This document shows, in pieces, positions 4,466 to 16,982 of a stretch of DNA of 21,707 bases. Location: the IMG/VR virus record IMGVR_UViG_2529292922_000023; one strand, 5' to 3'. This DNA is from a virus (taxonomy: Duplodnaviria > Heunggongvirae > Uroviricota > Caudoviricetes). The notes beneath the pieces were generated by a model. It was not told the origin of the DNA. It worked only from the letters and a program-made list of their open reading frames with translations, and made no database searches. Both the position numbers and the translations under genes were made by a program. The number at the start of each line of letters is the position of its first letter. Position 1 is the first letter of the stretch.

Positions 4466-4959
4466 TGTTGCCCCCACAAACAGACTTCACGCTCAATCTC
4501 GCGGCGAGTCATCAGCCCTTTCCATTGCTTACCGCCAGCGTATGTCCAGCGCCGTAGCTGATCACATGCGCCTTTGATATCGCCCTGGTTTATTTTGCGA
4601 AGAAGCGTCGATGTTCTGAAATTGCCAGCGCCCACGTTGTAAACGAACGAGTAAAGAGCGCCGCGCGTTGTTTCCGGTATATCGACGTTGATGTACGGGT
4701 TAATTTGTCTGGCGACCGTGGCAAGGTCTTTATTCAGGAGGGCTTTGCATTCTGCTTCGGTATACGTTTTACCGAGCATAATGTCTTTTCCGGTGTGCCC
4801 GTAACATACAGTCCATACACCAACGATATCTTTATATGGTATGTAGCTGACGCCTTCCAGACCATCGTTACCACTTGGGCCAGTGATTAACACAGATGCT
4901 ATAGCAATAGCCCCGCCACCAATAGCCGCAGCAACGGCTTTTCGTAATGATGGAGGCAT
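4462..4959 (-). CDS. R: SAR endolysin (phage 21 R-type lysozyme, GH24)
   Basis: N-terminal Gly/Ala-rich signal-anchor-release segment ([18 protein letters not shown]) followed by a T4-lysozyme-like catalytic region ([22 protein letters not shown]); matches my recollection of P21 R. Confidence 0.9.
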
Positions 4960-5174
4960 TATTCACCTCTCGCAGCCTTACGCTTGTCTTCTCTGATTTT
5001 GAAGTACAGATTTGTCAGGTAAGTCAGAAAGCCCAGAACCAGACTTCCCAGCACACCAATCGCAGCCCACTGTGACGGACTGACCTGATCAAGCCACTGT
5101 AAAAACCAGTAGCCAGCACTACCAGCGGATGTTCCGTAGGCAATGCCAGTAGAGATTTTGTCCATTGATTTCAT
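4959..5174 (-). CDS. S: Pinholin (class II holin, S21-like) with dual-start motif
   Basis: 71 aa, MKSMDK... dual start (Met1/Met4), two TM segments, C-terminal basic tail; matches my recollection of phage 21 S. Confidence 0.85.
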
Positions 5175-5296
5175 AGCAACGCCTCCGCCAGTAACGGATT
5201 GCGTAGTTCTTATATTGGGAAGGGGAAAAAAGAAGGCCGCAGCGTAACTATCACTAATAAATTCAGGACAGCCAGTGGCTACGGCTCAGTTTGGGT

Positions 5297-5341
5297 TGTG
5301 GCGGCCGGAATCGAACCGGCTTCCATCGGTGCGCTGCCGAT
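5297..5341 (-). other. tRNA-like 3' fragment (T-arm plus anticodon-arm-like hairpin), not a complete tRNA
   Basis: Minus strand has a canonical T-arm GCCGG-TTCGATT-CCGGC (5304..5320) preceded by a perfect 5-bp stem / 7-nt loop hairpin ATCGG-CAGCGCA-CCGAT (5325..5341); no matching 5' acceptor strand or D-arm found and no CCA. Confidence 0.35.
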
Positions 5342-5489
5342 TGCAGTACGCGCGGCGGTCAGCTATATGACTAGTATTTTCACTATCGCCTATCTGCTAG
5401 CTCGCCATTGAGCTTCACCACAACGATAAGAGCACTGCGCGGCACCTTTCACCAATTCCGCGAGGTCTGCGGGTTCAATGCTCTTACCT

Positions 5490-5526
5490 GTTGTGCAGAA
5501 AAAAAACCACACGGCAGCGAGTTTAA
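5490..5526 (-). terminator. Intrinsic terminator on the late (minus) strand, tR'-equivalent position upstream of S
   Basis: Minus-strand RNA forms CCACAC-AGC...GCU-(GCC)-GUGUGG hairpin followed by U8 (forward A8 at 5490..5497); the flanking CTGCACAACAGGTAAGAGCATTGA matches what I recall of the lambda tR' region. Confidence 0.5.
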
Positions 5527-5576
5527 GCTGTGTGGCGAAGTTACCTCTCTTCACCAAGTATTCGGTAATAAAATAA

Positions 5577-5609
5577 CTTGTGGTGTTCTCGTTTTTATGC
5601 CGATAAAAT
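5577..5609 (+). promoter_or_regulatory. Candidate sigma70 promoter for the moron gene
   Basis: TTGTGG (5577..5582), 18-20 nt spacer, TAAAAT-like -10 inside GATAAAAT, about 25 bp upstream of GGAG RBS and ATG 5639. Confidence 0.3.
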
Positions 5610-5638
5610 AAACGGTCCACTTTCAAATGGAGCGATTC

Positions 5639-6559
5639 ATGATTTTTCTCAGAACTGAAAACGGCATCGAGAAACTTGAAAACTGGGAGGAAATTATATC
5701 CAGACCAAACTTTGTCACCACTATAGACAAAGGAGTTCAACAACTTGAGGAGATAATTGGTTACTACAAATTTAAAGAAGAAATCCACTGTGGTCTAACT
5801 GGTTGCAACCAACCACATCAAATGGGTTATATTGTAAAAACATCTAGTGGCATTGAAACCAACATCGGAAATAAATGTGGTAAAAACGAATTTGGTGTGG
5901 AATTTGGTGAAAACGTTCTTAGTTTCAATAAATTTATGCAACTCGAAACCAATCGGGAAATTATTAGCACCGCAAAAAGTAAATGTGAAGCGTGGCAAAA
6001 AAATATTGAAACGATACGAAATATCAAACCCACAATAGATTATCTATCTTCTACCATCGAAAATAGTAAAAATTCCAATTACTCCGGAAGACTTGGTGCT
6101 ACAGAAATTCGTTTTTTGACCAAGAACCAGACAGGCCTTGTAACCCTTTCTGAAGTGGAAACTGATAAGAATACCAAAACAATTCTGTTCGCAATGAATG
6201 AACACATGCGCGAGTCTGGAGAGGCAATAAGTGAATTCTACATAGGAAAAGTATCATTTAGTCATGTTCTTTTACCAGAAAACAATCTTCGTGATTTTTT
6301 TGTTGCGCTCAAAGAAGATCTAAAAAAAATTCAGTGTATTGATCTACAAACAGCCCCAAGCCCAGAAATTTCTAATGTTGCCAAAATTGCCAGTTCAATC
6401 GAAGAACGAATCAAGCGATTAAAAAAACTGAAACATGAAGCCAGTAAATTCCTAACTAAAAAAAATCTGCGTCCCATCGCAAACAAAATAAAATACTCAT
6501 CGACAGCGGATGAACTTGAATTCCATAATTTCGAACGCTTTTTAAAAGGGCTGAAATGA
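5639..6559 (+). CDS. Moron: AT-rich hypothetical protein (about 306 aa), opposite strand, inserted between Q and the lysis cassette
   Basis: Long clean ORF on the opposite strand to all flanking phage genes; markedly AT-rich; GGAG RBS 6 nt before ATG 5639 (ORF-track start 5627 has no RBS); stem-loop terminator 4 nt after the stop; Lys/Asn/Glu-rich with a Cys/His cluster (HCGLTGCNQPH...KCGK) and predicted coiled-coil C-terminus; no family recognised. Confidence 0.7.
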   Translation: MIFLRTENGIEKLENWEEIISRPNFVTTIDKGVQQLEEIIGYYKFKEEIHCGLTGCNQPHQMGYIVKTSSGIETNIGNKCGKNEFGVEFGENVLSFNKFMQLETNREIISTAKSKCEAWQKNIETIRNIKPTIDYLSSTIENSKNSNYSGRLGATEIRFLTKNQTGLVTLSEVETDKNTKTILFAMNEHMRESGEAISEFYIGKVSFSHVLLPENNLRDFFVALKEDLKKIQCIDLQTAPSPEISNVAKIASSIEERIKRLKKLKHEASKFLTKKNLRPIANKIKYSSTADELEFHNFERFLKGLK

Positions 6560-6562
6560 TAA

Positions 6563-6580
6563 AAGCCCCGAAAGGGGCTT
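6563..6580. terminator. Bidirectional stem-loop terminator (7-bp stem, GAAA tetraloop) between Q/pR' and the moron
   Basis: AAGCCCC-GAAA-GGGGCTT; on the minus strand followed by UUUUAUCAUUU, on the plus strand placed 4 nt after the moron stop with a weaker U-tract. Confidence 0.6.
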
Positions 6581-6673
6581 CTATCAAAATCATTTACGCA
6601 TTATTCCGCATGCTTAAAAGAATACATGACAGATTCGGACAAAATCAAGTGCAATGTCGCAAAAACCCTAAGC

Positions 6674-7504
6674 TTAGTTCACATCATCACCAAAACTTGT
6701 CACATTCTGAAAAGCAATATCGGCCTTACGCTCTTCCTGGTGGCAAATGTCAACCAGAGAATCAAGAAACGGCTTCCAATTACGCGTCCATGTCCTGACA
6801 TGTAGCTCGGGTATCCGCTTCAGTACAACTTTATATACTGTGGTAGACGGTACCGTGGAAAATCCATTTCCGCTGCAACGTTCGCAGATTTTAAACACTG
6901 GCACACCACGCTCGCTTGTGGCTTTGCGGTCCAGTACCTCTCCCTTTCCACCACAACGACACCTGGCACTTATCACTCCCTTCCCTTTACATACATCGCA
7001 AACGACTGGTACAACTTCCGTTACCTCTGTCCATTTCTCCCAGTCTGACGGTCGAACAGCACGGGAGCGACTGGCCCAATATGGTGCTTTACCCCATGGG
7101 TATGAAACCTTACGAATGACCTGCTTACGGGGTGTTAGTCCGGTACCACTGCAACTATGGCATGTTACGCTGGTGTCCGCCGATCGGGAATACTCAGCAA
7201 AAGCAAACTGCGCCAGTACCAGCATACACCAGCCAAATTCACCACCAGCTGCTTTACGCACATTCTTCGGTGCAATTTCCATCGCGTGACGCGCCAGCGC
7301 TTGGACTGCCATCTGCTCATCAGTCTTGCTGATACCGGCCTTCCCGAAGAAGGCCGCCAAGCCAAACCGTTCACGATTGCTGGTGGTACCAATAGCCGCC
7401 ATAACATCGGTGCCTGTAAGACGTTCCGGAGAGGTTCCTTTCACATCGTCGCCGATATACATTCCCTGAGGACTGAAGTATTTTAGCGATGCCTCAAGCT
7501 TCAT
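6674..7504 (-). CDS. Q: Late antiterminator Q (lambda Q family) with expanded zinc-binding region
   Basis: N-terminus (KYFSPQG...LTGTDVMAAIG) and C-terminus (KVVLKRIPELHVRTWTRNWKPFLDSLVDICHQEERKADIAFQNVT) align with lambda Q (LIPNLTQPTWSRTVKPLYDALVVQCHKEESIADNILNAVT); central region carries four CxxCxGxG-like repeats. Confidence 0.85.
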   Translation of the reverse strand: MKLEASLKYFSPQGMYIGDDVKGTSPERLTGTDVMAAIGTTSNRERFGLAAFFGKAGISKTDEQMAVQALARHAMEIAPKNVRKAAGGEFGWCMLVLAQFAFAEYSRSADTSVTCHSCSGTGLTPRKQVIRKVSYPWGKAPYWASRSRAVRPSDWEKWTEVTEVVPVVCDVCKGKGVISARCRCGGKGEVLDRKATSERGVPVFKICERCSGNGFSTVPSTTVYKVVLKRIPELHVRTWTRNWKPFLDSLVDICHQEERKADIAFQNVTSFGDDVN

Positions 7505-8361
7505 TATTCACACTCCCCAACCAGATTAAGAATAACCGCCGCGCCATTGTCTTTCATATATTCGCCCTTTCCGCTTGCCAAAAACCAACGACACACCTCC
7601 ACTGCTTCAGCCCGTGTCACCGGTTTGATGGTCATCAGCAATTTTTCAAGGTAGCGCTCGCGGTCATATACCGATTCGTGATGCTCAGAGTAACCATACT
7701 CATCGCCCTGTTCTTTAGACGCAGTGTGGCGAACACTGTAGAGCCAGTCCCAGTAAACAAACTCACGAACTACGTCTGACAATGTATGAGGCTCTGGCAG
7801 TACATCACGATAGCCATCAACATATGCACGACGCTGATCATCAATTTCATTCATACGGATGCCATCAATTCTGCCCGCTGTCTTCTCGGCTGCAGTCCAG
7901 CCCCAGAGATGATCGTCGATAAATTTCTGGGAAGACTTGATCACTCGCTCGGCTTCCACATCTTCGAGTGCTGCTTCATAGCTACCAAACGTAGCCCTGA
8001 CTGATGTTGCTTTTTTGATATTCTCCCGGGCGATCCTGATTGCCTGTGCCGGGTTATCCATGCCGATGGTACCGAAAGCAATCTGGAAAGGATCACCACC
8101 ATTCGCCAGCAGATAACGCGAATAGCGTTCCTGGGCCTCTTTTGGGGAAATTTTAATTTTCACCAGCGCAGCCTCAGCAGCATCCAGATGTGCGGGTTCG
8201 TTCAGACGGATAACCTCCAGCACCCAAAGATAAGCATCAGTCTGCTTATGCCCGGTGATTCTCCGTTGCTCTGGCAGGGGCTTGATGTTTGCGAGGGCGG
8301 AGCTGTACGCTGCCGTCGGGATGGTGAATAGTGCTTTATGTTCGTTGTTATCAGTACGCAT
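7504..8361 (-). CDS. Hypothetical protein (285 aa), nin-region position between primase and Q
   Basis: Long ORF translationally coupled to primase upstream and Q downstream; no family recognised. Confidence 0.55.
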   Translation of the reverse strand: MRTDNNEHKALFTIPTAAYSSALANIKPLPEQRRITGHKQTDAYLWVLEVIRLNEPAHLDAAEAALVKIKISPKEAQERYSRYLLANGGDPFQIAFGTIGMDNPAQAIRIARENIKKATSVRATFGSYEAALEDVEAERVIKSSQKFIDDHLWGWTAAEKTAGRIDGIRMNEIDDQRRAYVDGYRDVLPEPHTLSDVVREFVYWDWLYSVRHTASKEQGDEYGYSEHHESVYDRERYLEKLLMTIKPVTRAEAVEVCRWFLASGKGEYMKDNGAAVILNLVGECE

Positions 8362-11675: not shown

Positions 11676-13980
<2,305 letters not shown>

Positions 13981-15848: not shown

Positions 15849-16036
15849 TAACTCCATTAAATATTCTTGAGGAAGTGGCGGCACAAATAAAAGAGAATAC
15901 ATCAATGCTTGAATTTATATTTAAGAATTCGCCCGACCAAGGAGAGACAGACGATTATTTATGCTGTCTCATTCGCTCCATGAATAAGACCTGTGAAATG
16001 GCTTACGAGTATATAGAAACACTACGCAACGAATAA
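15845..16036 (+). CDS. Small acidic protein (63 aa), unknown function
   Basis: ATG overlaps the upstream stop (ATGA coupling), AAGGAG RBS; acidic, Cys-containing. Confidence 0.55.
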   Translation: MITPLNILEEVAAQIKENTSMLEFIFKNSPDQGETDDYLCCLIRSMNKTCEMAYEYIETLRNE

Positions 16037-16220
16037 AGAACACTCAGTAAAAAATCACACATAAAAACATGACGGCCTCTGGTCGTGGATTTCCACAACC
16101 AGAAAATAATGGTGATGCATGAAAAATAGAAACGCTTATAAAACCGCATTATTAATGGCTAATGCAGGATACTGGTCAGTTGCAATACTGTTTCTCAGAA
16201 AAGCATACGGGAAATAACAA

Positions 16221-16580
16221 ATGGCATGTACAACCATTTATAAAGATCGTCGCCGCATGGTAACAGCGGCACTCCGGCGGATGCAACGTAAAACAGGTAG
16301 TAATCTGCTCGTCGTTGACCTCCCGGACGGAGAAATAACAACGATAGAAATAACTGAACAGTTCATGAACCAGTTGTTATTACGATTTGAGGGTCTTACC
16401 CGTGTTGAATATGGACGGACGGAAGGAGAAGCAACAATCCGTACCGCATACCAGAATGCCATCGGTATTAATCAACACACGGAATATCTCACTGAATCAG
16501 GGAAACTGATAGTGGACGGCCTTTTAAAAGAGGTTGTTGACTACGTAAAAGAGAAATATATCAGTGGAGGAATTAACTGA
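16221..16580 (+). CDS. Hypothetical protein with N-terminal arginine-rich segment
   Basis: 119 aa; N-terminus YKDRRRMVTAALRRMQRK is arginine-rich; preceded by a 184-bp non-coding region. Confidence 0.5.
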   Translation: MACTTIYKDRRRMVTAALRRMQRKTGSNLLVVDLPDGEITTIEITEQFMNQLLLRFEGLTRVEYGRTEGEATIRTAYQNAIGINQHTEYLTESGKLIVDGLLKEVVDYVKEKYISGGIN

Positions 16581-16789
16581 TGTCTGATTTATCCCCTCTT
16601 ATACACGAAAAAGTACAGATCATTATGACGATTGAAAATGGTCAGGTAATAAATACCCGTAAAGTTCACAATAACGAGATGATTGCCAGCATGGATACCT
16701 TCTTATGGATAGCAAAGAAAGCGGGATATCAGGTAATCGCTCCTGATCTGGAGGAAATCGGTGACATTAACAGCAATACGAATTCCTGA
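16580..16789 (+). CDS. Hypothetical protein (69 aa)
   Basis: GGAGG RBS; ATG overlaps the upstream stop (TGATG). Confidence 0.5.
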   Translation: MSDLSPLIHEKVQIIMTIENGQVINTRKVHNNEMIASMDTFLWIAKKAGYQVIAPDLEEIGDINSNTNS

Positions 16790-16982
16790 GTGGGTGCACC
16801 TGCAGGCGGTCCGTGTTCTCCGCCAGTTCAGAGCCAGACGAATTCATCCCTGTCGTATGCACGGCTCCGGAAACCTGAGTCTGAGGGTTAATCGCCGCTG
16901 GCGGCTGCTGTCCCGAGACGGCGGCCAGAACTGGGAAGTAATGAGCCATGAACGATACAGCAAAGTTAAGGACCGGAAATGA
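16761..16982 (+). CDS. Hypothetical protein with weak HigB/RelE-like C-terminal resemblance
   Basis: GTG start with GGAGG RBS 6 nt upstream; C-terminus LSLRVNRRWRLLSRDGGQNWEVMSHERY loosely resembles the HigB C-terminal motif (…WRITF…YEDYH); shorter than typical HigB and overlaps the upstream ORF by 29 nt. Confidence 0.3.
   Translation: MTLTAIRIPEWVHLQAVRVLRQFRARRIHPCRMHGSGNLSLRVNRRWRLLSRDGGQNWEVMSHERYSKVKDRK

Follow-up and report, generated by a model that had tools for sequence, protein, structure and literature searches.

The 276-aa protein encoded on the minus strand at 6674-7504 of the window (the whole stretch of DNA analysed, 21,707 nucleotides) is almost certainly a late-gene antiterminator of the lambda Q family. 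Taken as a whole, the data are very probably best explained by the Q of a lambdoid Escherichia coli prophage with a long arm of the phi80 type. The gene is an ordinary, correctly annotated Q antiterminator. Both the protein and its family were known and annotated before, as was the long form (phi80). The arm bears four Cys motifs, an architecture that is the norm of the family.

The open reading frame starts with ATG (ORF list). The plus-strand frame at 6674-7504 is full of stops, with no open frame there. The coordinates in the earlier note were right; the strand, which it left unstated, is minus. PF03589 (Antiterm; Antitermination protein Q) is matched at 175.3 bits (E 2.6e-52; cut-off 26.7), and lambda Q itself matches the same Pfam model. 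The PHROG search gives a full-length match to phrog_127 (3e-98), covering profile positions 1-252 of 253. Significant matches among PDB sequences are lambda Q chains alone (7ubm_Q, E 2e-35; HMMER). Proteins 99-100% identical in E. coli genomes carry the annotation 'antitermination protein'. The AlphaFold2 (AF2) model used for the fold search is of moderate confidence (pLDDT 67.6). It shows the lambda Q fold, a helix-turn-helix four-helix body with a zinc-ribbon arm, and all eight Foldseek matches of the full model at E ≤0.001 are lambda Q chains (7ubn_Q, E 9.6e-11). In an arm-only model, 42-46 residues align with lambda Q arms at 38-43% identity. The assignment to the lambda Q family proposed earlier is borne out by the Pfam, PDB and Foldseek matches.

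Lambda Q (PDB 4MO1, 7UBJ-7UBN) shares PF03589, the N-terminal nozzle segment, the helix-turn-helix body and the C-terminal helix with the window protein. Length is 276 aa vs. 207 aa in lambda Q, a difference of 69 aa, close to the 70 proposed. The termini align as claimed, residues 1-123 with lambda 1-126 and residues 179-268 with lambda 115-205. The N-terminal 60 aa (7325-7504, minus strand) are homologous to the exit-channel nozzle segment of lambda Q, matching lambda Q 1-60 at 25 of 60 positions without a gap. The pLDDT of these 60 aa in the AF2 model is below 50. By analogy with lambda Q, they would serve as an RNA-exit-channel nozzle. In lambda Q, the N-terminal segment refolds upon NusA binding (PMC9388147).

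All four Cys motifs listed in the earlier note, CHSCSGTG, CDVCKGKG, CRCGGKG and CERCSGNG, are there; the third is CxC, not CxxC. All lie on the minus strand. Motif 1, CHSCSGTG (aa 115-122; 7139-7162), has both Cys invariant in 45 homologues and is absent from lambda Q (MAFFT, HMMER). The 46-aa linker between motifs 1 and 2 (7001-7138) is predicted from AF2 strands to form a long beta-hairpin, aa 123-134 plus aa 157-168, with a conserved Trp/Arg-rich loop, YPWGKAPYWASRSRAVRPSDWEKW. Motif 2, CDVCKGKG (aa 169-176; 6977-7000), stands exactly 13 residues ahead of motif 3 in 33 of 33 four-motif sequences. Motif 3, CRCGGKG (aa 182-188; 6941-6961), is a CxC variant equivalent to lambda Q Cys118/Cys121 (HMMER, 'sarcr.cggkg' vs. 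lambda 'GARCRDCHGTG'). Motif 4, CERCSGNG (aa 207-214; 6863-6886), is equivalent to lambda Q Cys144/Cys147 in the alignment to lambda Q. Residue by residue, C182, C184, C207 and C210 align with lambda Q C118, C121, C144 and C147. CxC and CxxC alternate at the motif 3 position across the family. Motifs 3 and 4 are spaced 25-26 residues apart in 30 of the 33 four-motif sequences and 26 apart in lambda Q.

Four motifs did not arise by chance, because none of 200,000 shuffles of the protein exceeded two; 99.6% of the shuffles had zero. All eight Cys are invariant among the 45 aligned homologues (68-88% identity). The linker is 14-63 aa long in the 33 four-motif sequences. Its loop has many Trp, Arg and Lys residues, hardly varies among close homologues or within the phi80-type subgroup, and is common to phi80 Q; the linkers of other four-motif lineages are unrelated in sequence. 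The strands at aa 123-134 and aa 157-168 are antiparallel in both AF2 models (block pLDDT 74-86). The Cys knuckles are modelled at a pLDDT of only 61-68.

Motif 1 and the next strand (SVTCHSCSGTGLTPRKQ, aa 111-134, minus strand 7100-7170) weakly match the N-terminal part of human TMEM106B (PF21002, E 9e-4; PDB 9gi8, 'SVTCPTCQGTGRIPRGQ'). This likeness is probably that of a short common knuckle motif, not homology.

The zinc-ribbon arm does carry an extra Cys-rich module of about 67 aa. Short forms of the protein, including lambda Q, are without exactly motif 1, the linker and motif 2 (MAFFT alignment); the part that lambda Q lacks, about 67 aa made up of both motifs and the 46-aa hairpin, would lie at the base of the arm. 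Lambda 'GARCRDCHGTG...CGRCKGVG' aligns with motifs 3 and 4, the intervening segment included (HMMER, MAFFT). A BLASTP alignment that placed the first lambda knuckle on motif 1 was set aside: HMMER and MAFFT place that knuckle on motif 3, and their register is preferred, since it also brings the 'ARC' ahead of the knuckle and the inter-knuckle segment behind it into agreement.

Four motifs occur in 31 and two motifs in 17 of 51 full-length family sequences. The set consists of 49 representatives clustered at 50% identity together with the window protein and lambda Q; its ranking by likeness to a four-motif query biases it toward four-motif forms. In an independent count, 133 of 250 phage records have a family member covered to at least 80% in one place, as expected of the long form; in lambda, P22, HK97 and similar phages the Q alignment falls into two pieces with 77% coverage. 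The best 120 homologue clusters are all long forms, mostly of 270-278 aa, nearly all with four motifs. They come from E. coli, Shigella, Salmonella, Enterobacter, Citrobacter, Klebsiella, Kluyvera, Cronobacter and others, at least 10 enterobacterial genera. The four-motif architecture reaches representatives at 25-35% identity. Some representatives are much longer: P0208 (479 aa), P0235 (401 aa) and P0188/P0203 (about 320 aa). They match only the N-terminal half of Q, or only the arm and the C-terminal half, and may reflect fusion or faulty gene calls.

In full-length proteins, motifs 1 and 2 occur jointly or not at all. The four-motif P0127 (269 aa) and the two-motif P0133 (200 aa) have nearly identical flanks, and one clean 67-residue gap in the arm, corresponding to motifs 1 and 2, separates them. 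The two proteins form a natural long-arm/short-arm pair. In a rough neighbour-joining tree of the non-arm columns, drawn without support values from a hit list ordered by likeness to a four-motif query, two-motif forms stand in at least three positions, and lambda Q stands among four-motif lineages. From the P0127/P0133 gap and the scatter of two-motif forms in the tree, the module has been lost or gained repeatedly. Loss, with lambda Q as a deletion derivative, is at least as likely as duplication in the window Q.

The nearest experimentally studied counterpart is phi80 Q (gp17, PHI80_57, AFV29194.1; late transcription antitermination protein), 269 aa long and 41% identical over 97% of the length. 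Like the window protein, it carries four Cys motifs, CDCCDGGG, CKPCNGKG, CRCHGKG and CDRCGGRG, and an insert loop, SYPWGKPPYWSKMSRAVRPSDWESW, of the pattern SYPWGKxPYW...SRAVRPSDWExW. The layout is also alike: Q, an annotated pR' with the Q site in the spacer between -35 and -10, a terminator, and the lysis genes. The binding sites differ, the candidate in the window being TGTCCGAA... vs. TCGCGGA in phi80, which fits different DNA specificity. The genes upstream of Q differ as well: phi80 has nin-region genes there (phosphatase, Rap endonuclease, Lar-family protein), and the window has helicase and primase.

The earlier note saw in the extra Cys pairs a distinctive duplication of the zinc-binding module, and this part of it fails, the family alignment showing such pairs to be common (phi80 Q; 31 of 51 representatives; 133 of 250 phage records). 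A one-off, recent duplication peculiar to this phage would account for the 69 aa beyond the textbook lambda Q and for the recurrence of the same motif type in the extra part. It is scarcely credible and is ruled out by phi80 Q, the homologue clusters and the family alignment: phi80 Q has the same architecture at 41% identity, and this architecture recurs in 120 homologue clusters from at least 10 enterobacterial genera and in representatives down to 25-35% identity. Moreover, segment 1-2 (14-63 aa) and segment 3-4 (25-26 aa) are unlike in length and content, and the extra part is therefore no simple tandem copy of the ribbon.

In lambda Q, aa 114-152 form the arm, a zinc ribbon that holds one Zn (PMC9388147). 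By homology, motifs 3 and 4 are the counterpart of this single ribbon, so that motifs 1 and 2 remain for a second site. Such a site, formed by motifs 1 and 2 at the base of the long beta-hairpin, is likely in the window protein. The strands at aa 123-134 and 157-168 pair between motifs 1 and 2 in the models, so that the two knuckles would be brought together in ribbon-like fashion. A tandem pairing, 1 with 2 and 3 with 4, is on balance favoured by homology, spacing and the AF2 secondary structure.

The arrangement was earlier called DnaJ-like. Four repeats are indeed there, three canonical and one CxCGGxG, but their connectivity is probably not that of DnaJ. The DnaJ/BSD2 Cys-rich domain (PF00684; PDB 1EXK, 2CTT, 6EKB) likewise has four CxxCxGxG-type knuckles, two expected zinc sites and short steps of 13-17 residues between adjacent knuckles, and the likeness in sequence and fold is weak. 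The window protein differs in its sub-cut-off Pfam score, in having neither a J domain nor a DnaJ C-terminal domain, in one CxC knuckle, in the 46-aa hairpin between motifs 1 and 2 and in its probable tandem connectivity. Neither a J-domain nor DnaJ_C was found in a Pfam and family-profile search of the protein. In DnaJ, the zinc sites are reportedly nested, motif 1 pairing with 4 and motif 2 with 3. The step from motif 3 to motif 4 of DnaJ joins knuckles of different zinc sites. It is this step, 14 residues long, with which the 13-residue step from motif 2 to motif 3 of the window protein aligns.

A nested two-zinc centre, 1 with 4 and 2 with 3, in a V-shaped Cys-rich domain as in DnaJ or BSD2, is improbable. 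It draws on the four CxxCxGxG-type motifs and on profile matches, PF00684 (DnaJ Cys-rich domain) at E 1.3e-5 and the DnaJ model TIGR02349 at E 6e-5; many homologues also carry a precomputed PF00684 match. The PF00684 match, however, scores 25.8 bits against a gathering cut-off of 32.7 and covers only aa 169-215, and lambda Q, with two motifs alone, gives a match of similar strength. Segment 3-4 is homologous to the lambda ribbon, whose two knuckles hold one common zinc (PMC9388147), and natural deletions take motifs 1 and 2 jointly while 3 and 4 stay. The 13-residue 2-3 spacing fits the step between sites in DnaJ, not its 22-residue within-site hairpin, and in the AF2 models the strand that follows motif 1 is paired with the one leading into motif 2. 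More doubtful still is a surface loop that binds no metal, its Cys pairs being a relic or redox-sensitive thiols in a variable loop of a protein that works like one-zinc lambda Q. Short forms without motifs 1 and 2, such as lambda Q, are functional, the linker is hypervariable in length and the knuckles are modelled at modest confidence, all of which would suit a metal-free loop. Against it, none of the four Cys in motifs 1 and 2 varies among 45 close homologues, 33 divergent sequences retain them despite an unconserved linker, and the two motifs come and go jointly in full-length proteins. Two tandem ribbons are the reading retained here. No description of a second zinc ribbon in a long-arm Q was found in a limited literature search outside the works likeliest to treat phi80 Q, and a search for Q, zinc finger and DnaJ in combination returned nothing relevant.

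Contacts of the arm are known from lambda Q. The arm tip, aa 133-137, touches sigma region 4; residues near the zinc ligands reach the Q-binding element at positions 11-13; the zinc-binding domain of RNAP beta' is met by residues 110-112, 117 and 122-126 (PMC9388147). The insert of the window Q starts directly after the equivalent of lambda residue 113, at the arm base, beside the beta' contact surface. By analogy, and as speculation, the extra ribbon may modify docking on RNAP or DNA. A wider proposal may be given an even chance: that the majority form (phi80 Q, Stx2f-phage Q) carries a second zinc ribbon lying beyond the structural work on two-motif lambda Q, fused in tandem over 13 residues, with a hypervariable beta-hairpin of 14-63 aa at the beta' contact spot, and that this swappable module, repeatedly lost or gained, alters docking on the polymerase or DNA.

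Downstream of Q, the putative late control region lies on the minus strand at 6554-6648, its parts assigned by position and conservation: after the Q gene come a conserved promoter and spacer block, a -10-like element and a hairpin, then holin, lysozyme and Rz. The candidate late promoter pR' (6619-6648) consists of -35 TTGATT (6643-6648), an 18-bp spacer and -10 TATTCT (6619-6624). The candidate Q-binding element, TGTCCGAATCTGTCATG (6625-6641), lies in the spacer, with TGTC repeated 10 bp (one helical turn) apart. The block TTGATTTTGTCCGAAnnTGTCnTGTA recurs 3' of Q, between diverged flanks, in three related phages with 64-72% identity in Q, two of Klebsiella and one of Yersinia; aligned with these phages, it follows the pattern TTGATT-TTGTCCGAAnnTGTCnTG-TAnnnT. 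In a fourth relative, Klebsiella P18-100 (Q 62%), the hexamers are kept and the spacer is different. A -10-like element, GGAATAATGCG / GGAATAATG (6597-6607), in the initially transcribed region aligns with GGGATATAA in related phages and is a candidate sigma-dependent pause element; its pausing role would follow the Q loading mechanism of lambda (PMC9388147). The terminator hairpin, GAAGCCCCTTTCGGGGCTTTTATCATTT with a U-run (6554-6581), is a candidate tR' located by RNA folding. Its folding energy is -26.3 kcal/mol (z -4.5), and none of 200 shuffles is as stable. Related phages and phi80 have a hairpin with a T-run in the corresponding position. The hairpin is considered bidirectional, because it also abuts the stop codon of a reverse 310-aa ORF. 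A consensus promoter and terminator scan of 4900-6800 listed neither the candidate pR' nor the tR' hairpin, both of which were located by alignment and folding; the promoter was missed because its hexamers agree with the consensus in no more than 8 of 12 positions.

The window is a lambdoid prophage. Minus-strand order: integrase, cI-like repressor, cro, an IS21-family insertion, helicase, toprim primase, a 285-aa ORF, Q, the reverse 310-aa ORF, holin, lysozyme, Rz and terminase. The 285-aa ORF (7504-8361, minus strand) is directly upstream of Q and overlaps it at nucleotide 7504. It is conserved in F719 and phi467; other genes occupy the place in Klebsiella phages. It matches no Pfam family, and the only PADLOC match is a weak one to PbeC (E 0.0015). 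The AT-rich 310-aa ORF (5627-6559, plus strand) lies between Q/pR'/tR' and holin, without a match in Pfam or PADLOC, and is possibly a moron or defence gene. Late transcripts must cross it antisense. It is also present in the E. coli F719 prophage (15946-16866); in phi467, two reverse-strand hypothetical ORFs (4492-5366) occupy its position. A tRNA scan detected no tRNA genes in the window; the F719 prophage has four there, and phi467 also has some.

The IS21-family element (11895-13696, minus strand), between cro and the replication genes, comprises an IstA-like transposase (12674-13696) and an IstB-like ATPase (11895-12677). It is missing from the otherwise matching F719 prophage. The element may block early transcription toward Q, so that this copy might not be expressed from pR, and the prophage may be defective. 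That Q is intact but silent in a decaying prophage, with early rightward transcription blocked by the IS21 element and no Q made on induction, is possible but doubtful. The presence of IstA/IstB-like genes within the early operon and their absence from the F719 prophage speak for it; a full-length ORF, 99-100% identical to copies in other genomes, and intact downstream lysis and terminase ORFs speak against. Silence would in any case bear on expression in this strain, not on the identity of the protein.

Other antiterminators do the same work in lambdoid phages. The Q21 and Q82 families are functional analogues with the same job and genome position (PMC9388147). The window protein has no sequence or fold match to Q21 or Q82 (the PDB searches gave lambda Q structures alone).

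The mode of action proposed here is modelled on lambda Q throughout. Q would bind the spacer site of the late promoter just 3' of its own gene (6619-6648) and dock on RNA polymerase held by sigma70 at the -10-like element (6597-6607). Its N-terminal 60 residues would be threaded into the RNA exit channel as a nozzle. The polymerase would then pass the terminator at 6554-6581, run antisense over the putative 310-aa moron and enter the holin, lysozyme, Rz and terminase genes. Two tandem ribbons would be joined by the invariant 13-residue step, the extra one inserted at the arm base, where lambda Q meets the beta' zinc-binding domain.

The same Q occurs beside a toxin operon. Phage phi467 (LN997803, 3501-7089), an Stx2f phage (PMC7366253), has a 98.9% identical Q upstream of stx2f A/B. 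No stx genes are present in the window, though Q and the reverse ORF are as in phi467. The promoter, binding site and terminator that go with this allele, mapped through their conservation, probably act as the switch of Stx2f expression. The value of the finding is modest: it consists in the link of this Q allele to stx2f in phi467 and in the structural question of long-arm docking. All solved structures of the lambda Q family are of lambda Q, without the extra ribbon; the docking geometry of lambda Q may not describe most members of the family.
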